Origin: Usitatibacteraceae bacterium
GTDB lineage: Bacteria > Pseudomonadota > Gammaproteobacteria > Burkholderiales > Usitatibacteraceae
Assembly (NCBI GenBank): GCA_044221765.1
Contig: JBGAOO010000001.1
Coordinates: forward strand, 1-40,301
Direction of reading: 5' to 3'
DNA length: 40,301 nucleotides
Shown: positions 4,736-34,292 of the stretch, piece after piece
How the letters are laid out: each line of letters begins with the position of its first letter
How positions within the stretch are numbered: position 1 is the stretch's first letter
The notes under the pieces: generated by a model
Seen by the model: only the letters and a program-made list of their open reading frames with translations
Database searches by the model: none
Told to the model about the DNA's origin: nothing
Program-made: the position numbers and the translations under genes

Positions 4736-5118
4736 CGGGCCCCGGGCGGCGCCTTCCTTGCGCGAGCCCCCGGCGCGGCCTTGCGCGCGGCCGCCCGCAG
4801 CGCCGCCTCGAAGCCCAGGCGCGCCCACCGGGCCATCTCCGCCGGGCTCTCGAGGGCCTCGTCCGGCGCGCGACGGTACGACATCGAGGTCGCCTTCCCG
4901 CCCTTCGAGACGAACTCGAAGGGCTCGAGCCCCTGCGCCTCGAACGCGGCGCGGTTCCCGTCGTCCACCTTGAGGTAGAGCACGTCCTGCGCGACGAGCG
5001 CCAAGAAGGCGCCGTGGTGGTAGAGGCCCCAGCCGCCGAACATCGCCTTCGCCTCGACGGGCCCGAAGGCGCGCATCGTCTCCAGGACGTGCTCGACGTA
5101 CTCGCTGCGCATCGCCAT
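4732..5118 (-). CDS. TfoX N-terminal domain protein
   Basis: MAMRSEYVEHVLETMRAFGPVEAKAMFGGWGLYHHGAFLALVAQDVLYLKVDD...FEFVSKGGKATSMSYRRAP is the TfoX_N pattern. I trimmed the 253-aa track ORF to the internal ATG at 5118, because the upstream part is Arg/Ala/Gly junk. Confidence 0.75.
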   Translation of the reverse strand: MAMRSEYVEHVLETMRAFGPVEAKAMFGGWGLYHHGAFLALVAQDVLYLKVDDGNRAAFEAQGLEPFEFVSKGGKATSMSYRRAPDEALESPAEMARWARLGFEAALRAAARKAAPGARARKAPPGAR

Positions 5119-7721: not shown

Positions 7722-8614
7722 GGGCGGCCGATCTCGTCCGCCTCGTCGCGCTCGCGGCGATCTGGGGCGGCTCGTATCTCTTCATGCGCATCGCCGTGCC
7801 CCACGTGGGCGCGGCCTGGCTCGTCGAAGGGCGCACGCTCGCCGGCGGCCTCGTGATGGCCGCCTTCCTCGTCGCCACGCAGCGCGGCTCGGGCCTGGCG
7901 AGGCACTGGCGCGGCTACCTCGTGATGGGCGTGGTGGGCGTCGCGGCGCCCTTCTGGCTGATCGGCACCGCGGTGAAGACCATCGACGCCTCGACGGCCG
8001 CGATCCTGAACGCCACCTCGCCCATCTTCTCGGCGATCGTCGCCGCGATCTGGATCCGCGAGCGCCTCACGGCGGAGAAGGTCGCGGGCATCGCGCTCTC
8101 GATCGCGGGCATCGCGGTGCTCGTGGGCTGGACGCCCAGGCCGATGACGCACGCGGAGCTGCTCGCATGCGCGATGTCGCTCACGGCCTGCGCCTGCTAC
8201 GGATTCATCGCGGTGTTCACGAAGGTGCACATGAAGGACGCGCCCTCGGCGGCCCTCTCGGCGGCCAGCTGCCTCGTGGCGGCCCTCGCGATGGCGCCCT
8301 TCACGCCGTGGGAGGTGCTCGCCTCTCCCGTGCCCGCGGGCGCCTGGCTCGCCGTGCTAGCGCTCGGCGTGGTGTGCACCGGCTACGCGTTCATCCTCTA
8401 CTATCGCCTCATCCGCGAGCTCGGGCCCGTGAAGGCGCTCACGGTGACGCTGCTCGTGCCCGTGTTCGGCATCCTCTGGGGCGTGCTCTTCCTGGGCGAT
8501 CCCCTCACGCCGGGGCGGGTGGCGGGGTGCGCGATCGTGCTGGCGGGGTGTGCTCTCGCGCTGGGGCTGATGCGATTGCCGGGGCGGCGGGGAGTGACGC
8601 TGCCCAAGAGCTAG
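7718..8614 (+). CDS. DMT superfamily (EamA-like) transporter
   Basis: 10-TM pattern with two EamA halves. N-terminus (TTG)RAADLVRLVALAAIWGGSYLFMRI. The TTG start at 7718 overlaps the ogt stop. The last ~7 codons and the TAG stop lie inside the left arm of repeat element E1. Confidence 0.8.
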   Translation: MRAADLVRLVALAAIWGGSYLFMRIAVPHVGAAWLVEGRTLAGGLVMAAFLVATQRGSGLARHWRGYLVMGVVGVAAPFWLIGTAVKTIDASTAAILNATSPIFSAIVAAIWIRERLTAEKVAGIALSIAGIAVLVGWTPRPMTHAELLACAMSLTACACYGFIAVFTKVHMKDAPSAALSAASCLVAALAMAPFTPWEVLASPVPAGAWLAVLALGVVCTGYAFILYYRLIRELGPVKALTVTLLVPVFGILWGVLFLGDPLTPGRVAGCAIVLAGCALALGLMRLPGRRGVTLPKS

Positions 8615-8802
8615 GACACGGATGAACACGGATGAACACGGATAAGGGCGAATGTGTCCGGGGCTGTTTCTCCGCCGTGAGAATTGCGGGCATCGATTGC
8701 AAGCCACCACGGTTCGACGAAGCGGGCTGAATGCCGCCTATCACGAATCAATCCGTGTTCATCCGTGTTCATCCGTGTCCTAGCTCTTGGGTAGCGTCAC
8801 TC
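8592..8802. repeat. E1: 211-bp composite inverted-repeat element (52-nt arms, 107-nt core), no cargo
   Basis: Left arm 8592-8643 is GAGTGACGCTGCCCAAGAGCTAGGACACGGATGAACACGGATGAACACGGAT. The reverse complement of the right arm (8751-8802) is identical apart from one mismatch (GCTGCCC vs GCTACCC). Confidence 0.9.
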
Positions 8803-10915: not shown

Positions 10916-11239
10916 ATGAAGAAGTCCGCACTCATCATCGCCGCACTCGGCGCCGCCTTTGCCGCCGCTCCTGCCATGGCCAGCCTCGAGCTCGCCACCA
11001 AGAGCGCCTGCACCGCCTGCCACCAGGTCGACAAGAAGCTGGTCGGCCCCGCCTACCAGGAGGTCGCCGCCAAGTACAAGGGCAATGCCAAGGCCGAGGC
11101 GATGCTCATCGAGAAGGTCAAGAAGGGCGGCGTGGGCGTGTGGGGCCAGGTCCCGATGCCCCCGAACGCCGCCGTGAAGGACGAAGACGTGAAGACCCTC
11201 GTGAAGTGGGTCCTCGCCGGCGCGCCCGCCAAGAAGTAA
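10916..11239 (+). CDS. cytochrome c-551/c8 family (class ID) monohaem cytochrome
   Basis: Signal peptide MKKSALIIAALGAAFAAAPAMA, haem site CTACH, KKLVGPAYQEVAAKY and GVWGQVPMPPN. The SD GAGGAG lies 7-8 nt upstream of the ATG at 10916, so the track start at 10877 is rejected. Confidence 0.85.
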   Translation: MKKSALIIAALGAAFAAAPAMASLELATKSACTACHQVDKKLVGPAYQEVAAKYKGNAKAEAMLIEKVKKGGVGVWGQVPMPPNAAVKDEDVKTLVKWVLAGAPAKK

Positions 11240-11259
11240 GGTAAGCGCACGCTTACGCG

Positions 11260-11287
11260 AAAAAGCCGACCTCGCGTCGGCTTTTTC
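11260..11287 (+). terminator. rho-independent terminator after the cytochrome c gene
   Basis: AAAAAGCCGAC-CTCGC-GTCGGCTTTTT: a GC-rich stem followed by a T-run. Confidence 0.7.
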
Positions 11288-11409
11288 CATTCTGGGAAGG
11301 GCCTTGGGCCAAATTGACACGTCCGGGGGGCACTCCCATAATCTCCCGCCTGTTTTCCCCGCGTCGCCAGGCCCATCCGGCCCCAACACTTTCCCACCAG
11401 GAGATCTCG

Positions 11410-12693
11410 ATGAATCGTCCCACCCAGCTGGGCCTCGCCGTGCTGCTCGCCCTCGGCGTCGTCGCCTGCGGCTCCAAGGAAGAAGCCAAGCCCGCCCCGA
11501 AGGCCGATGCGGCCCCGGCCGGCATCACCGTCACGATCGCGCACGCGGGTCCGCTCACCGGCTCCATCGCCCACCTGGGCAAGGACGACGAGAACGGCGT
11601 CGCGCTCGCCGTGATGCACGCCAACGAGAAGAAGATCAGCCTGGGCGGCAAGCCCGTCACGTTCAAGATGGTGAGCGAGGACGACCAGGCCGACCCGAAG
11701 GTGGGCACCACCGTCGCGCAGAAGCTCGTGGACGCGAAGGTCGCCGCCGTCGTGGGCCACCTGAACTCGGGCGTGACCATCCCCGCCTCCGAGATCTACA
11801 ACAAGGCCGGCATCCCGGTGATCTCGGGCTCGGCCACCAACCCGACCCTCACCGAGCGCGGCCTGAAGACCGTCTTCCGCACCGTCGGCCGCGACGACCA
11901 GCAGGGCCCGGCCATCGCCGCCTACATCGCCGGCGAGCTGAAGGGCAAGAAGGTCGCCCTGGTCGACGACAAGACCGCGTACGGCGAGGGCCTCGCGAAC
12001 GAGGTGGAGAAGGCCCTGAAGGCGGCCAAGGTCACCATCGTCACGCGCGAGCGCACCACGGACAAGGAAACCGACTTCAAGGCCGTGCTCACGAAGATCA
12101 AGGGCAAGAACCCGGACGTCGTCTTCCACGGCGGCATGGACGCCACCGGCGGCCCGATGCTCAAGCAGGCCCGGGAACTGGGCATCAAGGCCGTCTTCGC
12201 CTTCGGCGACGGCGCCTGCACGGACGAGATGTCCAAGCTGGCCGGCGCGGCCTCCGAGGGCTTCGCCTGCTCGCAGGCCGGCCTGCCCGCCGTCGCGGCG
12301 AGCAAGGAGTTCCAGGACGCGTTCAAGGCCAAGTTCGGCGAGATCAAGCAGTACGCCCCGTACTTCTACGACGGCGCCATGGCGATGATCGAGGCCATGA
12401 AGAAGGCCGATTCCGCCGACCCCGCCAAGTTCGCCCCGAAGATCTTCGAGGTGAGCTTCCAGGGCGCCACGGGCAAGGTCGAGTTCGACGCCAAGGGCGA
12501 CCGCAAGGACGCGGAGATGACCATCTTCCGCATGGGCAAGGACGGCAAGATCGCCCCGGTGGCGATCGTGAAGAACGGCGTGTCCTCGCCCTTCGCGCAG
12601 CCGGCGGCGCCCGTCGCCGCCCCGGCCGCCGAGGCGAAGAAGGACGAGCCCGCGAAGCCCGCCGAGAAGAAGGCCGAGGAAAAGAAGAAGTAG
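11410..12693 (+). CDS. livK: branched-chain amino acid ABC transporter substrate-binding lipoprotein (LivK/LivJ family) with a Lys/Ala/Pro-rich C-terminal tail
   Basis: Lipobox LALGVVAC, then the type I periplasmic binding fold pattern (IAHAGPLTGSIAHLGKD..., VVGHLNSGVT, ALVDDKTAYGEGLA). SD CAGGAG before the ATG at 11410. First gene of a livHMGF cluster. Confidence 0.9.
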   Translation: MNRPTQLGLAVLLALGVVACGSKEEAKPAPKADAAPAGITVTIAHAGPLTGSIAHLGKDDENGVALAVMHANEKKISLGGKPVTFKMVSEDDQADPKVGTTVAQKLVDAKVAAVVGHLNSGVTIPASEIYNKAGIPVISGSATNPTLTERGLKTVFRTVGRDDQQGPAIAAYIAGELKGKKVALVDDKTAYGEGLANEVEKALKAAKVTIVTRERTTDKETDFKAVLTKIKGKNPDVVFHGGMDATGGPMLKQARELGIKAVFAFGDGACTDEMSKLAGAASEGFACSQAGLPAVAASKEFQDAFKAKFGEIKQYAPYFYDGAMAMIEAMKKADSADPAKFAPKIFEVSFQGATGKVEFDAKGDRKDAEMTIFRMGKDGKIAPVAIVKNGVSSPFAQPAAPVAAPAAEAKKDEPAKPAEKKAEEKKK

Positions 12694-12710
12694 CCCTCGC
12701 CCCACGGGAG

Positions 12711-12740
12711 AACGGCACCGGCGACGGTGCCGTTTTTTTT
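12711..12740 (+). terminator. intra-operon rho-independent terminator/attenuator between livK and livH
   Basis: AACGGCACCG-GCGA-CGGTGCCGTTTTTTTT: a perfect 9-bp GC-rich stem followed by T8. Confidence 0.7.
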
Positions 12741-12783
12741 GGGACTGCGTAGAATCGGCCCATCGCCAACGAGGAGTGCCGCC

Positions 12784-13782
12784 CTGGATACCTTCCTGCA
12801 GCAGGTGGTGAACGGCCTCACGCTCGGCAGCGTGTACGCGGTCGTCGCCCTGGGCTACACGATGGTGTACGGGATCATCCAGCTCATCAACTTCGCGCAC
12901 GGCGAGGTGGTGATGATCGGCTGCATGGTGGCCTTCTCCGTCATCGTCGCGCTCGCGCCGACGGGCCTGCCCCCGCTCTTGATCGTGGGCGCGGGCATCC
13001 TCGTGGCCGTGCCCGCCTGCATGGCGGTCGGCTACGTGGTCGAGCGCGTGGCGTACCGGCCCCTGCGCACCGCCCCGCGCCTCGCCCCGCTCATCACCGC
13101 GATCGGCGTGTCGATCGTGCTGCAGCACCTGGCCCTGCTCGTGTGGAGCCGCAACATCATCGCCTTCCCCCAGATCATCGAGCTGAAGCTCGTGCACCTG
13201 GGCACCAGCGAGACGAGCGCGGCCATCTCCAACATCCAGATCGCGATCATCCTCACCTCCTTCGCGATGATGGGGGGCCTGCTCGCGCTCGTGTACCGCA
13301 CGAAGCTCGGCATCGCGATGCGCGCCACCTCGCAGAACCCGGTGGTGGCGGGCCTCATGGGCGTGGACATCAACCGGGTCATCTCCGCGACGTTCGTGAT
13401 CGGCGCGGCCCTGGGCGCGATGGCGGGCGTCATGGTCGGCAGCTACTACGGCATCGCGCACTACCAGATGGGCTTCCTCCTGGGCCTCAAGGCCTTCAGC
13501 GCCGCGGTGCTCGGGGGCATCGGCAACCTCGCGGGCGCGGTGCTCGGGGGCATCCTCATGGGGCTCATCGAGTCGCTCGGCGCGGGCTACGTGGGCGACT
13601 TCACCAACGTGTGCACGCTCGATGCGTTCCTGCCCGGATTCGCGGAGGTCTGCGCGGCGAGCCCCGAGTCGAGCCTCTTCGGCTCCAACTACGAGGATGT
13701 CTATGCGTTCATCGTGCTGATCCTGGTGCTCGTCTTCCGGCCCTCGGGGCTGCTGGGCGAGCGTGTCGGCGACCGGGCGTAG
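12784..13782 (+). CDS. livH: branched-chain amino acid ABC transporter permease LivH
   Basis: (L)DTFLQQVVNGLTLGSVYAVVALGYTMVYGIIQLINFAHGE is the canonical LivH N-terminus. The homologous Met position is a CTG at 12784, preceded by GAGGAG at a 7-nt spacing. The only canonical in-frame starts (GTG 12727, TTG 12739) lie within the terminator hairpin and its T-run (12711-12740), so the start is uncertain. Confidence 0.8.
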   Translation: MDTFLQQVVNGLTLGSVYAVVALGYTMVYGIIQLINFAHGEVVMIGCMVAFSVIVALAPTGLPPLLIVGAGILVAVPACMAVGYVVERVAYRPLRTAPRLAPLITAIGVSIVLQHLALLVWSRNIIAFPQIIELKLVHLGTSETSAAISNIQIAIILTSFAMMGGLLALVYRTKLGIAMRATSQNPVVAGLMGVDINRVISATFVIGAALGAMAGVMVGSYYGIAHYQMGFLLGLKAFSAAVLGGIGNLAGAVLGGILMGLIESLGAGYVGDFTNVCTLDAFLPGFAEVCAASPESSLFGSNYEDVYAFIVLILVLVFRPSGLLGERVGDRA

Positions 13783-13790
13783 CTTGGCGT

Positions 13791-14284
13791 TAGTGAGTTA
13801 CGCCACCCAGAGGTGGGGACACGGATGAACACGGATGGACACGGATATTGGATTGAAGGGGCAAGCGGACGTTTCACGTTTCCCGAAGTGTCATCGGTGC
13901 AGCGTTTCGGGTAGCGAACTCCCTTGGTGTCGGGTTCCTGGAAAAGGTCTATGAGAACGCACTTGCGATCGAGCTACGCCTTGCCGGCCATGAAGTCGAG
14001 CAGCAACGCACGGTCGACGTGCGATACCGATGCGAGATCGTCGGCATCTACCACGCGGACCTCGTGGTCGACCGCTGCCTCATCGTCGAGCTCAAGGTGG
14101 CCGAATCCCTGTCCGCCGGTCACAAGGCGCAATGTCTCAATTCCCTCAGGGCATCGGGCCTCGATACCGGCTTGGTCATCAACTTCGGCCGGCCACGCCT
14201 CGAAATCCACCGCATCCTGTCCTGAGCGATCCCTCGACTCATCCGTGTTCATCCGTGTCCCCGCCTTCGGGGCGGCGTCACTCC
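13791..14284. mobile_element. E2: cargo-bearing member of the inverted-repeat family, enclosing a GxxExxY gene
   Basis: Left arm 13791-13846 is TAGTGAGTTACGCCACCCAGAGGTGGGGACACGGATGAACACGGATGGACACGGAT. Right arm 14241-14284 is ATCCGTGTTCATCCGTGTCCCCGCCTTCGGGGCGGCGTCACTCC, an imperfect reverse complement. The interior is visibly lower in GC and GC3 than the flanking liv genes. Confidence 0.8.
13857..14225 (+). pseudogene. GxxExxY protein (PD-(D/E)XK nuclease fold, PDDEXK_3/TIGR04256-like), nearly full length but without a usable start codon
   Basis: The frame reads ..SRSVIGAAFRVANSLGVGFLEKVYENALAIELRLAGHEVEQQRTVDVRYRCEIVGIYHADLVVDRCLIVELKVAESLSAGHKAQCLNSLRASGLDTGLVINFGRPRLEIHRILS*. It contains the GxxExxY motif and a D..(I/V)ELK nuclease core. 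There is no ATG, GTG or TTG in frame between the stop at 13854-13856 and GTG 14019. The 68-aa track ORF is only the C-terminal half. Confidence 0.75.
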
Positions 14285-14312
14285 CCGCCGATAGCCCGGC
14301 CACTACCGCCAA

Positions 14313-15401
14313 GTGACCATGGGCACCCTGTCCGCGCTTCGCGAGGATCCCCGCCTGAAATGGGCCGGGATCGCCCTCATCGCGATCGCGCTCGTGGCCC
14401 TGCCCTTCGCGCTCGCGATGGCGGGCACCGCGTGGGTGCGCATCACGAACCTCGCCATCCTCTTCGTGCTCCTGTCGCTGGGCCTGAACATCGTCGTGGG
14501 CTTCGCCGGGCTGCTCGACCTGGGCTACATCGCCTTCTATGCCGTGGGCGCCTACGTGTACGCGCTCCTCGCCTCGCCGCACTTCGGCCTGCACCTGCCG
14601 TGGTGGGCCATCCTGCCCATCGGCGCGGCGGTGGCCTGCCTGTTCGGCGTGCTGCTGGGCACGCCCACGCTCAAGCTGCGCGGGGACTACCTCGCCATCG
14701 TGACGCTGGGCTTCGGCGAGATCATCCGCATCTTCCTGAACAACCTCTCCGAGCCCTTCAACCTCACCAACGGCCCGAAGGGCATCGCCACCATCGACCC
14801 GGTGCGCTTCCTGGGCATCGACTTCGGCGTGGCCTCGCCCCTGGGCCCGCTCGTGGCCACGGAGACGGTCAAGTACTACTACTTCCTGCTCGCGGTGCTG
14901 CTCGTGGTGATCGTCGTGAACCTGCGCCTGCAGGATTCGCGCATCGGCCGCGCGTGGGAGGCGATCCGCGAGGACGAGATGGCCGCCCGCGCCATGGGCA
15001 TCAACACCACGCGCATGAAGCTGCTCGCCTTCGCGATGGGTGCCTCCTTCGGCGGCATCGCCGGGGGCATGTTCTCCGCGATCCAGGGCTTCATCAGCCC
15101 CGAGAGCTTCATCCTCACCGAGAGCGTCATGGTGCTCGCCATGGTCGTGCTGGGCGGGATGGGCAACATCTGGGGCGTGATCCTGGGCGCGGTGCTGCTC
15201 TCCTTCGTGCCGGAGATCCTGCGCTACACCGTGCAGCCGGCGCAGCTCTGGCTCTTCGGCCGCTCGATCATCGACCCCGAGGTGATCCGCATGCTGCTCT
15301 TCGGCCTGGCGATGGTGGTGATGATGCTGGTGCGCCCGGCCGGCCTCTTCCCCTCGGCGGTGAGGAAGCGCGAGCTCGCGCGCGGGGACGACGACGAATG
15401 A
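14313..15401 (+). CDS. livM: branched-chain amino acid ABC transporter permease LivM
   Basis: 362 aa, polytopic. GLNIVVGFAGLLDLGYIAFYAVGAY and LRGDYLAIVTLGFGEIIR are LivM signatures. Confidence 0.9.
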   Translation: MTMGTLSALREDPRLKWAGIALIAIALVALPFALAMAGTAWVRITNLAILFVLLSLGLNIVVGFAGLLDLGYIAFYAVGAYVYALLASPHFGLHLPWWAILPIGAAVACLFGVLLGTPTLKLRGDYLAIVTLGFGEIIRIFLNNLSEPFNLTNGPKGIATIDPVRFLGIDFGVASPLGPLVATETVKYYYFLLAVLLVVIVVNLRLQDSRIGRAWEAIREDEMAARAMGINTTRMKLLAFAMGASFGGIAGGMFSAIQGFISPESFILTESVMVLAMVVLGGMGNIWGVILGAVLLSFVPEILRYTVQPAQLWLFGRSIIDPEVIRMLLFGLAMVVMMLVRPAGLFPSAVRKRELARGDDDE

Positions 15402-16189
15402 GCGCCGCCGCGCCCATCCTCGAGATCGAGCACGTCACCAAGCGCTTCGGCGGGCTCACCGCGCTCTCCGGGGTGAGCTTCTCCATCCGCCGCGGCGAGA
15501 TCTACGGCCTCATCGGCCCCAACGGCGCGGGCAAGACCACGCTCTTCAACGTGCTCACCGGCCTGTACCGCCACGACGAGGGCCAGTTCCGCTTCGAGGG
15601 CGCGGCGCTGCAGGACGCGACGCCGGACCGCATCGCCGCGCTCGGCATCGCCCGCACCTTCCAGAACATCCGCCTGTTCGCGAACCTCTCCGCGCTGGAG
15701 AACGTGATGATCGGCCGGCACGTGCGCACGAAGGCCGGCGTGCTGGGCGCCATCCTGCGCGATCCGCGCACGCGCGCCGAGGAGGCCGCGATCAACCGAC
15801 GCGCCCACGAGCTGCTCGACTACGTGGGCATCGGCGCGCGCGGCAACGAGCTCGCCCGCCACCTGCCCTACGGGGACCAGCGCCGCCTGGAGATCGCCCG
15901 CGCCCTTGCCACGGACCCGCGCCTCATCGCCCTCGACGAGCCCGCGGCGGGCATGAACGCCACGGAGAAGCAGGAGCTGCGCGTGCTCCTGGAATCCATC
16001 CGCCGCGACGGCACCACCATCCTCATCATCGAGCACGACATGCGCCTGGTGCTGGGCCTGTGCGACCGCGTGCTCGTGCTCGACTACGGCAAGCGCATCG
16101 CCGAGGGCGTCCCCGCCGACGTGCGGCGCGATCCGAAGGTGATCGAGGCTTACCTCGGCGCGCAACATGCCGCGACCGATGTCGAGTGA
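15398..16189 (+). CDS. livG: branched-chain amino acid ABC transporter ATP-binding protein LivG
   Basis: Walker A GPNGAGKTT, signature LPYGDQRRLEIARAL, Walker B LIALDEPAAGM. The ATG overlaps the livM stop (ATGA). Its TGA stop (16187-16189) lies inside the GAGTGAC start of element E3. Confidence 0.9.
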   Translation: MSAAAPILEIEHVTKRFGGLTALSGVSFSIRRGEIYGLIGPNGAGKTTLFNVLTGLYRHDEGQFRFEGAALQDATPDRIAALGIARTFQNIRLFANLSALENVMIGRHVRTKAGVLGAILRDPRTRAEEAAINRRAHELLDYVGIGARGNELARHLPYGDQRRLEIARALATDPRLIALDEPAAGMNATEKQELRVLLESIRRDGTTILIIEHDMRLVLGLCDRVLVLDYGKRIAEGVPADVRRDPKVIEAYLGAQHAATDVE

Positions 16190-16462
16190 CGCTACCCAAA
16201 GGCAAGGACACGGATGAACACGGATGAACACGGATCAAAATCGAATGGAGCGCCACGAACCGATCGCTGTTGCGTGCTGTTCGACCGCTCATGAGCCACT
16301 GAATGCCGTGCGGACCGGATTGGCCATCGCAATTTCAGAATCCATCCGTGTTCATCCGTGTTCATCCGTGTCCTTGCCTTTGGGTCGCGTCCTCCCCGCA
16401 GTGTCCTTGCCTTTGGGTCGCGTCACTCCCCGCATGTCCCGGCCTTTGGGTAGCGTCACTCC
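16184..16462. repeat. E3: 212-bp inverted-repeat element (52-nt arms, 108-nt core) plus two extra tandem copies of the 33-nt terminal module
   Basis: Left arm 16184-16235 is GAGTGACGCTACCCAAAGGCAAGGACACGGATGAACACGGATGAACACGGAT. Right arm 16344-16395. The module GTGTCCTTGCCTTTGGGTCGCGTC(A)CTCC recurs at 16368, 16401 and (diverged) 16434, a 33-nt period. Confidence 0.9.
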
Positions 16463-16465
16463 CCC

Positions 16466-17173
16466 ATGCCCATGCTGAAACTGGAAAGCGTCGAGGTCCA
16501 CTACGGCGGCATCCGCGCCGTGAAGGGCATCGACCTGTACGTGGAGCAGGGCGAGCTGGTGTGCCTCATCGGCGCCAACGGCGCGGGCAAGACGACCACG
16601 CTGCGCGCCATCACGGGCCTCGCCCACGCGAGCGGGCGCATCGTCTACGACGGCGAGGACATCGCGGGCCTGAAGCCGCACCAGATCGCCCGCAAGGGCC
16701 TCGCCCTCGTGCCCGAGGGCCGCGGCGTCTTCCCGCAGCTCACGATCGACGAGAACCTCGCGATGGGTGCCTACGCGCGCGGCGACAAGGCGGGCATCGC
16801 CGCCGACACCGAGCGCGTGTTCCACCTCTTCCCGCGGCTCAAGGAGCGGCGCCGGCAGACGGCGGGCACGATGTCCGGCGGCGAGCAGCAGATGCTCGCG
16901 ATCGGCCGGGCGCTCATGGGCCGGCCGCGCCTGCTGCTGCTCGACGAGCCGAGCATGGGCCTCGCGCCCATCATGGTCGAGCGCATCTTCGAGGTGATCC
17001 GCCTCATCGCCTCCGAGGGCGTCACGATGCTGCTGGTCGAGCAGAACGCGCGCCTCGCGCTGGAGGCGAGCCGGCGCGCGTACGTGCTCGAGAGCGGCCT
17101 GGTCACCCTCTCGGGCGCGGCGGCCGACCTCCTGCACGACCCGCAGGTGCGCAGCGCCTACCTCGGGGAGTGA
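16466..17173 (+). CDS. livF: branched-chain amino acid ABC transporter ATP-binding protein LivF
   Basis: MPMLKLESVEVHYGGIRAVKGIDL.., Walker A GANGAGKTT, signature MSGGEQQMLAIGRAL, Walker B LLLLDEPSMGL. The start could be the second ATG at 16472. Confidence 0.9.
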   Translation: MPMLKLESVEVHYGGIRAVKGIDLYVEQGELVCLIGANGAGKTTTLRAITGLAHASGRIVYDGEDIAGLKPHQIARKGLALVPEGRGVFPQLTIDENLAMGAYARGDKAGIAADTERVFHLFPRLKERRRQTAGTMSGGEQQMLAIGRALMGRPRLLLLDEPSMGLAPIMVERIFEVIRLIASEGVTMLLVEQNARLALEASRRAYVLESGLVTLSGAAADLLHDPQVRSAYLGE

Positions 17174-17299
17174 TGCGCGAACGGCCTTACCAATGTAACC
17201 TGCGCGTGACGGGAAGCACAGACGGCCCGATGGGGGGGCCGCGACAATAACGAGAACGGTGGCGTGCCCGGTTCGCCGCCCGCTAGGACAGGGAATCCC

Positions 17300-19090
17300 A
17301 TGACTTCGAATCGCGCCGCGCGCGGCGTCCTTCTCGGCCTGGCCGCGATCGTGCTGCTGGGCACGCTCGCGTTCCTGTACTGGCGCACCGAAGGCATCGA
17401 CTTCAAGCGCGACGCCGAGGCGCTCACGCTGCTGCGCGAGCTGAAGGACCTGGACACCCGCTGGGATGCCGACGCGGCCCGCCTGGCCGCGAGCCCGACC
17501 GCCGCCGTGCCCGCCGACCGCACGCCCACGCTCCAGCGCATCCTGCGCGAGCTCGAGCGCGCGCGGGGCCGCCCGGAACTCGTCGCCGCCCTGCCGGAGA
17601 TCACGCAGGGCATGTCGGACAAGGGCAAGGCCTGGGAAGCCCTCAAGGCGCGCCACGGCGCCTCGGCGCAGGCGCTCAAGGCCTCGGACGAGGCGCTTGC
17701 GGCGCTCGCCGCCGAGGCCGGCGCCGTCCGCCTGCGCGACCCCAAGCGCGCCGAGCGCGCCTCGGCCTTCGCCGCCGAGGTCGCCGTGCTCGCCTCCGGG
17801 GCCCGCACCGCCGGCAACGAGGACGCGGGCGCGGGCCGCCCGGCCTTCGACACTCGCCTCGCCACGCTCAAGGACGCGGCCGCCGCCACGGACTACGCCC
17901 TCTCCCCGCCGGCCGACCGCGCCGACGAGGCCGTGCGCGCCTTCCTCGCCGCGCGCGCGGCCGAGCGCGAGGCCGCCGAGAAGTTCGCCTTCCTCACCGT
18001 CGGCGCGCGCGTGGACCTGCTGGCGCAGACCATCTCCCGCTCCGTGCAGGCCGCGCTCGAGGAAAAGGAGCGCTGGCGCGTCTACCTGGTCTTCTATGCC
18101 GCCGCCCTGCTGATCGGGGTGGGCTACCTGGTCGCGCGCGTGGTGGCCGCGCAGGAGGCCCTCAAGGCCGCGAACGAGGGCCTGGAGAGGCGCGTCTCCG
18201 AGCGCACGCGGGAGCTGTCCGAGACGCTCACGCGGCTGAAGGAATCCGAGGCGCAGCTCGTGCAGAGCGAGAAGATGTCCTCGCTGGGCCAGATGGTCGC
18301 CGGCGTCGCCCACGAGATCAACACGCCGCTCGCCTACGTGAAGAACAGCGTCGCCACCGTGTGCGAGCGCCTGCCCGAGCTCAAGGACGCGGTGATGCAG
18401 TCCGAGCGGCTCATGTCGCTGCTGCAGGCGGAGGCGGCCGACCCGAAGGACCTGCAGGATGCCTTCGCCGCCACCGCCACGCGCCTGGCGCAGATCCGCG
18501 ACCACCAGGTGATCGGCGACCTGGAGTCGCTCTCGAAGGACGGCCTGCACGGCATCGAGCAGATCTCGGACCTGGTGGGCAACCTCAAGAACTTCTCGCG
18601 CCTGGACCGCAGCAAGGTGGCGAGCTTCAACGTGAACGAGGGCCTGTCGGCCACCCTGCTCATCGCCCGGCCGCAGCTGCGCGGGATCGAGATCGACCGC
18701 CGGTTCGGCGAGATCCCCTCGATCACCTGCTCCCCGTCCCAGGTGAACCAGGTGTTCCTGAACCTGGTCACCAATGCCGCGCAGGCCATCGAGCGGCCGG
18801 ACAAGCGCATCCGGATCACCACCCGCCGCGAGGGCGCCGAAGCCGTGGCCATCGAGGTGGCCGACAACGGCAAGGGGATCGCCCCGGAGGTGCTGCCCAA
18901 GATCTTCGACCCCTTCTTCACCACCAAGGAGATCGGCAAGGGCACGGGCCTGGGCCTGTCCATCGTCTACAAGATCGTCTCGCAGCACGGCGGCCGGATC
19001 GACGTAAAATCGGTGGTGGGCGAGGGGACCCTCTTCACGGTCGTGCTGCCCGTCCACCCGCCCGCCGACCTGGCCGACTCGCTTCCCTGA
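17300..19090 (+). CDS. sensor histidine kinase (one N-terminal TM, long helical sensor region, second TM, HisKA + HATPase_c), no receiver
   Basis: H-box [26 protein letters not shown]-box [13 protein letters not shown]-boxes VADNGKGI and [11 protein letters not shown]. Start placed at the ATG at 17300 ([20 protein letters not shown]). The helical N-terminal region may be a DAHL-type domain, but that is uncertain. Confidence 0.85.

Positions 19091-30597: not shown

Positions 30598-34292
<3,695 letters not shown>

Follow-up and report, generated by a model that had tools for sequence, protein, structure and literature searches.

What is a small nuclease gene doing between two inverted repeat arms inside a liv operon, when the same arms stand nearby without it? 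The question arises from a 40,301-nt stretch of DNA of a Usitatibacteraceae bacterium (assembly GCA_044221765.1, contig JBGAOO010000001.1), which we call the window and whose positions we use throughout. The window carries three elements with arms of one type: E2, which holds the gene and lies at the livH/livM junction, and E1 and E3, which are cargo-less. A sequence-only reading had proposed E2 as a candidate autonomous unit of this repeat family. Our preferred answer, which we rate at slightly less than an even chance, is that E2 is a compact two-part element made of a nuclease gene and inverted arms built of short units. The cassette would be looped out of the transcript, the nuclease would act on the arms, and the gene-bearing copy and the cargo-less hairpins would be one system.

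The E2 cassette is about 490 bp long (13795-14283) and sits in a livH/livM spacer of 530 nt. Its parts and its neighbors are as follows.

12727-13782, + strand: livH-type permease gene (PF02653, BPD_transp_2, E 2.5e-43), whose stop codon is 12 nt 5' of the left arm.
13783-13795, no strand: outermost inverted segment, CTTGGCGTTAGTG, which pairs with 14301-14313 (inverted repeat of 13 nt, 92% complementary).
13795-13846, + strand: left arm, consisting of the outer segment GAGTTACGCCACCCAGAGGTGGG and then 2.8 units of ACACGGATGA, of the type seen in E1 and E3.
13835-13837, + strand: start codon of the nuclease gene, an ATG inside the last unit of the left arm.
13835-14225, + strand: GxxExxY (PF13366/TIGR04256) gene for a RecB/Cas4-like PD-(D/E)XK protein, a fresh pseudogene by its sequence, spread across two frames.
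13869-13882, + strand: 7-nt tandem duplication (ACGTTTC, ACGTTTC), the frameshifting lesion.
14142-14144, + strand: TCC (Ser) against TAC (Tyr) in orthologues, at the Tyr of the QxxxY motif.
14240-14283, - strand: right arm, consisting of 2 units of TCATCCGTGT and then the outer segment CCCCGCCTTCGGGGCGGCGTCACTC, with one unit fewer than the closest relative, locus L001.
14301-14313, no strand: partner of the outermost inverted segment, ending right before the livM start.
14319-15401, + strand: livM-type permease gene (PF02653); the ATG at 14319 is the start used by orthologues, and the listed open reading frame (ORF) opens at GTG 14313.

Each arm begins with an outer segment (GAGTTACGCC...GGGG) and continues into two to three tandem 10-nt units, ACACGGATGA. 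The core of the two arms (13806-13837 with 14240-14271) pairs over 32 nt and is 91% complementary. The outermost pair (13783-13795/14301-14313) carries the stem nearly to the livH stop and the livM start, and it is also paired in the predicted RNA fold. The gene spans the whole space between the arms, with its stop codon 14 nt before the right arm. We found 12 matches to the 18-mer CACGGATGAACACGGATG with up to three mismatches in the window, against 0.03 expected; they lie at E1, E2, and E3, plus one at 31795. These matches and the PF02653 neighbors bear out the earlier claim that arms of the E1/E3 type enclose the gene at the livH-livM junction. Terminal inverted repeats are common to gene-bearing E2 and gene-less E1 and E3 in one genome. 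The lone match at 31795-31812 (CACGGATGGACACGGACC, three mismatches) has no inverted partner, lies amid dense long ORFs, and is probably a chance occurrence.

The sequence-only reading had placed the ORF in the GxxExxY family on its motifs, and profile searches confirmed this. The frame 13857-14225 matches PF13366 with 120.1 bits (cutoff, 22; E 8e-35) over profile positions 3 to 117 of 117 and TIGR04256 with 125.7 bits (cutoff, 35; E 1e-36). GFLEKVY near the N terminus is the GxxExxY motif, and its G31, E34, and Y37 are invariant in alignments. The catalytic core, D73 plus E83-L-K85 (ADLVVD ... VELK), is retained in the window frame. In an alignment of 50 sequences, E44, D73, and E83 are invariant and K85, Q97, and Y101 are conserved in at least 90%. 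The QxxxY motif is broken in the window, which has Ser at 101 where homologues read Q97-C-L-N-Y101. We modeled an intact orthologue, P0004, with AlphaFold (predicted local distance difference test, 91; predicted template modeling [TM] score, 0.83). The best PDB matches of this model in Foldseek were Cas4 SSO0001 (4ic1), MGME1, lambda exonuclease, Cas4 Pcal_0546, and the AddAB nuclease domain. With E values of 2e-4 to 2e-2 and a TM score of about 0.5, the likeness is moderate and holds at the domain level only. The protein is thus, by model and motifs, a minimal RecB/Cas4-like PD-(D/E)XK domain and a predicted nuclease. Like Cas4, RecB, and lambda exonuclease domains, which are its best structural matches, it has the motif set E, D, ExK, and QxxxY; unlike them, it is only 127 aa long, is encoded by a stand-alone gene, and has no detectable relative by sequence in the PDB.

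The family is large, with 13,160 clusters at 50% identity (E ≤ 1e-3). Homologues number thousands in the database search, and the closest are mostly 127 aa long and begin MNTD[VF]GLKG..DVSRSVIGAAF. About 20 of the best 150 representatives (P0121, P0123, P0126, and others) have 250 to 390 aa and two GxxExxY domains per ORF, either as tandem cassettes or as fusions. PF13366, with TIGR04256, was the sole family match, and we found no HUH/Y1 (IS200/IS605-like) transposase. There was no match in the phage collection, 8 matches in 72,556 plasmid records, all on large replicons, no PADLOC defense match, and one weak match in PHROGs. Judged by these searches, the family has no link to phages, plasmids, or known defense systems. 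PF13366 appears in a single superfamily survey, as a family of unknown function (PMC3424549), and one literature note mentions a GxxExxY gene beside a CRISPR-associated reverse transcriptase (PMC8934634).

The frame 13857-14225 has no ATG, GTG, or TTG before the GTG at 14019, and the ATG at 13825 opens a frame that ends at a stop at 13912-13914. Both observations had been made by the sequence-only reading and are correct. That reading had also taken ATG 13825 as the start and expected a single indel between 13857 and 13911 to fuse it to the nuclease frame; comparison with orthologues upheld this in substance, with another ATG and another kind of indel, of 7 nt and not of 1 nt. The functional start is ATG 13835 (MDTDIGLKGQADVSR...), which lies one repeat unit beyond 13825 and in the third frame. 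P0001, which is 99% identical, reads MDTDIGLKGQADVSRSVIG...; beginning with ATG 13835, the window agrees with the DNA of P0001, L001, apart from the duplication, and we therefore take this ATG as the true start. The lesion is the 7-nt duplication, which is absent from five aligned orthologues and from L001 and constitutes a +7 frameshift. When we removed one copy of it in silico, we obtained a 127-aa protein that differs from P0001 at Y101S only. All liv-site orthologues start with ATGAACACGGAT (MNTD) or a close variant (MNTD/MDTD) at the homologous ATG in the last arm unit; intact copies are 127 aa long and begin with the repeat-encoded peptide, as had been predicted. The suggestion that the arm supplies the translation start for its cargo holds for these orthologues and likewise for about half of the diverse family members.

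The proposal that the window copy is decayed was also right. No intact reading frame of about 125 aa is present, as the duplication parts the start from the domain; by sequence the gene is a family member and a pseudogene. Compared with L001 (98.4% identical over 3.3 kb), E2 in the window also has two stem-weakening substitutions and one arm unit fewer. On these comparisons, the window copy is a fresh pseudogene that the 7-nt duplication and Y101S have disabled only very recently. An antisense ORF across the gene takes an MNTD start from the right arm; its frame is open throughout in no more than 11 of 80 loci, and we rejected it as a second gene.

The intact gene has resided at this junction for a long time, throughout a betaproteobacterial clade. 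We found the livH/livM junction occupied in all eight further lineages that we examined in detail (P0001, P0004, P0026, P0031, P0065, P0118, P0098, and P0076), reaching down to 56% protein identity (loci L001-L007 and L208-L213). The nearest named sources of these loci are a Betaproteobacteria metagenome-assembled genome and Usitatibacter/Usitatibacteraceae. All 13 liv-site loci that we fetched carry the gene; they were found via the protein, so the sampling is biased to occupied sites. Among the five closest lineages compared, the ratio of nonsynonymous to synonymous divergence (dN/dS) is 0.09 to 0.21 at a dS of 0.8 to 1.5, from which it follows that the protein has been kept by selection.

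Base composition tells a second story about the same gene. In the window its GC content is 0.607 and its GC content at third codon positions (GC3) is 0.748, against 0.68 to 0.72 and 0.96 to 0.98 in livK, livH, livM, livG, and livF. The lower values reported by the sequence-only reading are real, but the foreign origin that it drew from them is misleading, because eight lineages hold the gene at this site under purifying selection. In all eight, the GC3 of the gene is 0.61 to 0.75, against 0.93 to 0.99 in the flanks, and simple long residence does not explain this persistent offset. The identity of the nuclease is only loosely coupled to that of the flanks (Spearman, 0.41). The pair with the closest flanks, L208 and L212 (0.91/0.89), has the most divergent nucleases (0.53) and also differs in unit type. 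L002 and L001 encode an identical protein, and the difference of about 13% between their livH genes is gone from about 50 nt before the livH stop onward. The mismatch between nuclease and flanks and the break in identity suggest, as far as sequences can tell, that the cassette has been exchanged at a fixed site. In L001, the binding-protein gene 5' of livH (2-1747) is a single 581-aa call with a cytochrome c domain and Peripla_BP_6; in other relatives, the cytochrome c (103 aa) is encoded by a gene of its own, and the L001 call is a fusion or a gene-calling effect.

The arms vary between lineages, yet they are complementary within most elements. The two arms of one element match at 57 of 57 positions in L128, 54 of 55 in L208, and 52 of 60 in L209 and perfectly over about 40 nt in L210. 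Where a lineage has irregular units of its own, such as GATAGTGACGGATG, GATAACAACGGATG, and GAAACGGATGATCGG, the two arms show them in mirror image. Likewise, the mismatches between E1 and E3 are mirrored across both arms of each element. We distinguished two types of outer arm, type I (GAGTGACGC..CCCAAAGG..GGACACGG) and type II (GCAGTAAACCTTTGGAACACGG). The outer arms of E2 are II/II in L208, L128, L209, and L210, I/II in L003-L005, and I/I in the window and L001.

The two cargo-less elements of the window show the same turnover.

8592-8802, no strand: E1, cargo-less, with 52-nt arms that are 98% complementary, a 107-nt loop, and a predicted fold of z -13.4.
16184-16461, no strand: E3, cargo-less, at the livG/livF junction, with 48-nt arms, a 108-nt loop, and the outer right segment present three times.

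E1 and E3 also have counterparts at orthologous sites in L003-L006, whose loops are unrelated. Each of the five genomes has a hairpin in the EamA/DsbH spacer, which is the E1 site. The units there are CACGGATGAA in the window, L003, and L004 but CGCAGATGAA in L005 and L006 (about 4840-5010), so that the element was replaced in place. The approximately 8 kb compared between L005 and L006 is 100% identical outside one patch of about 260 nt, which is centered on E3. Within it, the E3 loop is inverted between L005 (12399-12481) and L006 (12389-12471) (reverse-complement z = 15). The patch takes in the last 80 nt of livG, with about a dozen substitutions at the livG 3' end. The left end of E3, GAGTGA, provides the livG stop codon, as it does in other filled livG/livF sites. 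In the deeper branches, L208-L213, E2 is present and nothing interrupts livG/livF (three have an ATGA overlap, and L209 has 2 nt), which indicates that E2 predates E3. Taken together, these sequence comparisons show that arm types, unit types, and loops have been exchanged at fixed sites, and apparently the cassette too. The loops of E1 and E3 share only their length (107 and 108 nt), and their similarity is not beyond chance.

Several arms contain extra copies of their parts. In the window, the outer segment GTGTCCTTGCCTTTGGGTCGCGTCACTCCCCGCA of the E3 right arm is repeated 2.9 times in tandem (16368-16464; 33-nt period). E3 in L004 has two right arms, E1 in L003 has two right-arm pieces, and partial arm duplication seems common. 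In L003 (10348-10512), a 54-nt unit made of the last GxxExxY codons and spacer is present 3.1 times at 100% identity right before the right arm.

We then scanned one genome per species for exact copies of the 18-mer CACGGATGAACACGGATG and obtained at least 120 matches (L008-L127), against a chance expectation of about 17 for the whole collection at equal base frequencies, by our own estimate. The hosts among the matches listed include Verrucomicrobiota, Planctomycetota, Acidobacteriota, all proteobacterial classes, Nitrospirota, Chloroflexota, Bacteroidota, Leptospiraceae, and others. At least 60 inward-facing array pairs were present, 57 of them with loops of 1 to 229 nt; outer flanks and loops are unconserved. 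In three loci among the matches listed (L015, L018, and L085), a GxxExxY gene lies directly 3' of the left array. Cargo-less hairpins thus far exceed gene-bearing ones (about 3 of 120 arm-selected loci), and GxxExxY is both the sole recurrent and the sole identified enclosed protein cargo in this set. Two wider array pairs, L014 and L064, span other ORFs; in L064 (3007-3964), inward arrays 912 nt apart surround a 203-aa ORF between ORFs of 502 and 1058 aa, and the 203-aa ORF may be a second kind of cargo or the two arrays may be separate. We noticed no four-helix-bundle (S23p-type) protein among the enclosed cargoes, for which no profile of that family was run. A run of three units gives one strand an ATG and a TGA in every frame and leaves the other strand free of stops in all frames. 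Other unit arrays, for example, ACCGCAGAGACGCAGAGG in L044 and L100, directly adjoin some of the 18-mer hairpins. In viral contigs, 29 stretches contained the 18-mer.

The reverse test started from the protein, with 80 diverse metagenome GxxExxY loci at 43 to 63% identity. When the upstream flank was compared with the reverse-complemented downstream flank, the median score was 39, versus 18 in controls, and 28 of 67 loci scored above the 99th percentile of a conservative control. A clear upstream tandem array was present in 47 of the 80 loci, with a period of 10 nt in 33 and 9 nt in 12. Its units include CACGGATGAA, CGCAGATGAA, CACAGATGAA, CGCCGATGAA, CGCAAATGAA, and ACAGGATTA, with the reverse complement downstream. 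At least one array of 8- to 11-nt units lies within 200 nt of the gene in 56 of the 61 loci with enough flank, and the commonest layout is array, gene, inverted array. The expectation that GxxExxY genes elsewhere would be flanked by these arms is thus borne out as to form, since unit arrays of the same form are usual at these metagenome loci, but not as to sequence, since the unit is often a different variant. An in-frame ATG lies inside 23 of the 47 clear upstream arrays, and about 24 of 50 representative proteins start with MN[AT]D-type peptides by our count.

Other arrangements occur as well. In Gemmatirosa and in L124, the gene is followed by a complete hairpin. L121 (about 320-800) and L124 (about 250-1050) have another arm type, with 8-nt ACGCCAAG units and the peptide KRQDAKG..., and the full layout in L124 is arm, gene, arm, loop, inverted arm. 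The genes are co-oriented with their upstream neighbor in 28 of 41 cases and with their downstream neighbor in 31 of 46. None of 40 GxxExxY loci was located in rRNA, and a scan of the window with Rfam at gathering thresholds returned nothing. In L139, a GxxExxY gene (1333-1671) has a group II intron D1-D4 RNA (1125-1264, - strand; 116 bits) at a distance of about 70 nt. We found no description of the gene-array pairing in the literature on GxxExxY, PF13366, PDDEXK_3, or TIGR04256, on the arm sequences, or on the arm peptides.

We found no promoter-like site in E2; the sole one in 11000-17500 is at 11314-11342 (+ strand), at the listed livK start. Since the gene has no promoter-like site of its own and the cassette fills the space between the arms, it must be transcribed with the liv operon. 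In the predicted fold of L208, the arms pair as a long-range stem of about 55 bp (z = -12.3). In the window, the 32-nt core and the outer segments give about 45 to 50 bp (z = -6.0). The nuclease ATG lies inside the predicted stem. The outer right arm of L208, L210, and L003-L007 carries a Shine-Dalgarno-like (A/G)AGG 10 to 12 nt before the livM ATG.

These observations lead us to the following model. The arms would pair in the operon transcript, with a stem of about 32 bp here and up to 57 bp in relatives, so that the cassette is looped out. The stem would hide the nuclease start codon and keep expression low and limited to the time before the right arm is transcribed, and looping-out would keep the livH stop beside the livM start. 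The concerted arms, the inverted loop, the swaps of arm type, and the replacement of the cassette suggest that the arms often recombine or undergo gene conversion. The sole protein consistently tied to the arms is the nuclease, and we propose it as the initiator because this is the most economical choice. According to this model, the nuclease would recognize unit arrays, or the hairpin or cruciform that they form, and make breaks. Repair of these by gene conversion would homogenize the arms and spread them, with or without the gene, to other copies or sites. The main action may be self-propagation into hairpins, as in homing, or may also include the multiplication of gene-less hairpins in trans, as with RAYT. 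A broader form of the model, which we regard as doubtful, is that GxxExxY genes and inverted arrays of 9- to 10-nt units (consensus, about CRCRGATGAA) make up an undescribed cross-phylum two-part element that is mobile or self-maintaining. In that case, the nuclease would read the arrays or their hairpin and drive the conversion that keeps arms paired, flips or replaces loops, and seeds hairpins, and the arms would be a module for expression and insulation (inward start codons, stops in several frames, and looping-out).

By analogy of layout, E2 is closest to REPIN/RAYT, to rRNA intervening sequences, and to free-standing homing endonuclease genes. It has no HUH transposase and lies outside rRNA, and no empty site was seen among the loci fetched via the protein. 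In REPIN/RAYT, a gene lies amid dispersed inverted repeats and persists vertically for long periods (PMC3116915; bioRxiv 10.1101/2021.07.10.451892). As with E2, the gene is flanked by inverted palindromic repeats that are also present as many gene-less intergenic hairpins, inheritance is vertical at a fixed locus, and the repeats persist as a population within the genome. E2 differs in having a PD-(D/E)XK nuclease instead of an HUH/Y1 transposase, tandem 10-nt units instead of REP sequences with a GTAG head, loops that are unconserved between copies, a unit sequence shared across phyla, and a start codon in the repeat. The Coxiella 23S rRNA intervening sequence with the S23p ORF has a 28-bp terminal stem round a small ORF and is excised by RNase III (PMC4990558). 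It shares with E2 a length of about 430 to 490 nt, an inverted-repeat stem enclosing one ORF of about 120 aa, a place in a transcribed unit, and a tendency to decay; both are looped out in RNA, E2 by predicted fold. In contrast, E2 lies in an intercistronic mRNA spacer, encodes a nuclease and not a four-helix-bundle protein, and has arms built of units.

Free-standing homing endonuclease genes are small nuclease genes that lie between conserved genes in the same orientation, with a start hidden in a hairpin, and that undergo same-site exchange and degeneration. E2 resembles them in position, co-orientation, a start that the predicted stem would hide, and signs of exchange and degeneration; unlike them, it has a repeat family that also exists gene-less and a gene that is present in all sampled members of the clade. 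The Correia/NEMIS and ERIC families are short inverted-repeat elements in operon spacers that form long RNA stems and can supply stop and start signals; their cores are conserved, and none extends beyond a genus or family. E2 is like them in its operon spacer, its long predicted RNA stem, and the stop and start signals that it gives its neighbors. It is unlike them in that the arms alone are conserved and the unit is shared across phyla.

Other explanations account for parts of these data. The arms could be hairpins that act at the RNA or host level (RNase III sites, mRNA stabilizers, insulators, or spacers), with GxxExxY as a host or defense-type nuclease that uses them as an expression platform (inward ATG, tight repression, and tolerance by the operon) and has no role in mobility. 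Long vertical residence with a dN/dS of 0.1 to 0.2 agrees with this, as do the position within an operon without a promoter of its own and the great excess of cargo-less hairpins (about 3 of 120 arm-selected loci with the gene, among the matches listed). So do the stop and start codons that the arm sets in several inward-strand frames, the Shine-Dalgarno-like AAAGG before livM in relatives, and the parallel with intervening sequences excised by RNase III (PMC4990558). We nevertheless think it unlikely: it leaves unexplained why the sole recurrent protein cargo is the GxxExxY nuclease family and why the same 10-nt unit consensus occurs with GxxExxY across phyla. Nor do the lack of an overall sense-strand G.U bias in the arms, the lack of a PADLOC match, and the GC3 offset that persists despite long residence fit it well.

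A selfish gene of the free-standing homing endonuclease type is another candidate; it would target cassette-free alleles or hairpin loops and be copied by break repair, with the arms as homology and the hairpins as landing pads of separate origin. PD-(D/E)XK homing endonucleases exist, for example, I-Ssp6803I. The fixed, co-oriented position between conserved genes (28 of 41 upstream and 31 of 46 downstream), the nuclease phylogeny at odds with the flanks, the sharp identity breakpoints beside the cassette, the persistently foreign-looking GC3, and the degenerating window copy, which a homing cycle predicts, would all follow. However, the gene is in every sampled lineage of the clade and we saw no empty livH/livM site, in a sampling via the protein that is biased to occupied sites; some copies stand beside a complete hairpin and not inside one; and the origin and cross-phylum spread of the arms are left unexplained. 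We consider this account improbable.

We judged it very unlikely that E2 is a classical transposon with miniature inverted-repeat transposable elements, in which GxxExxY would be the transposase of an insertion sequence-like element and E1 and E3 internally deleted derivatives moved in trans. Gene-bearing and gene-less copies do share terminal inverted repeats, the E1 and E3 loops are equal in length (107 and 108 nt), and E2 is older than E3 in the phylogeny. Against this, the loops resemble neither one another nor the gene, the elements stand at orthologous sites across diverged genomes and not at variable sites, and no target-site duplication was seen by eye, without a systematic search. In a single-domain nuclease of 127 aa, no module for DNA binding or strand transfer is evident. 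The family is all but missing from plasmids (8 of 72,556 records) and had no match in the phage collection.

Returning to the two-part element, we found several points that weigh against it. The action of the nuclease on the arms is a guess, and the arms are a putative substrate. A host gene that had been domesticated would likewise stay at one site under purifying selection. On the sense strand, arm mismatches are 62 G.U versus 72 A.C in 51 diverse loci, with no overall bias, and the 15:4 G.U bias at the liv site stems from related lineages; because there is no general G.U bias, selection on an RNA stem is not demonstrated. The long stem is not always kept: in the hybrids L003-L005, the unit arrays alone can pair (about 30 nt), and in L003, where the 54-nt triplication displaces the right arm, the 75 nt that we scored showed no arm pairing. 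Unit type does not cleanly track nuclease lineage. Patchy identity between metagenome contigs (L005/L006 and L001/L002) could partly reflect strain-chimeric assembly. We found no convincing gene remnant in 37 cargo-less loops; the best candidate, the L102 loop, failed on inspection. Since the loops lack gene remnants and are unrelated to each other, the hairpins are not recent deletion derivatives. No target-site duplication was visible at the ends of E1, E2, or E3 or between empty and filled livG/livF sites at E3, by eye and without a systematic search.

For annotation, the arms matter in their own right. They yield many spurious ORFs (MNTDEHG..., FIRVHPCSSV...) and displace the stops, starts, and ribosome-binding sites of operon genes, and recognizing them therefore improves the annotation of such operons. 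For the GxxExxY family, the consistent link to one kind of DNA repeat gives a candidate substrate, the arm arrays. If this link is functional, it would represent a transposase-free way for short palindromic repeats to arise and persist in bacterial genomes, and it could yield a very small sequence- or structure-specific nuclease.

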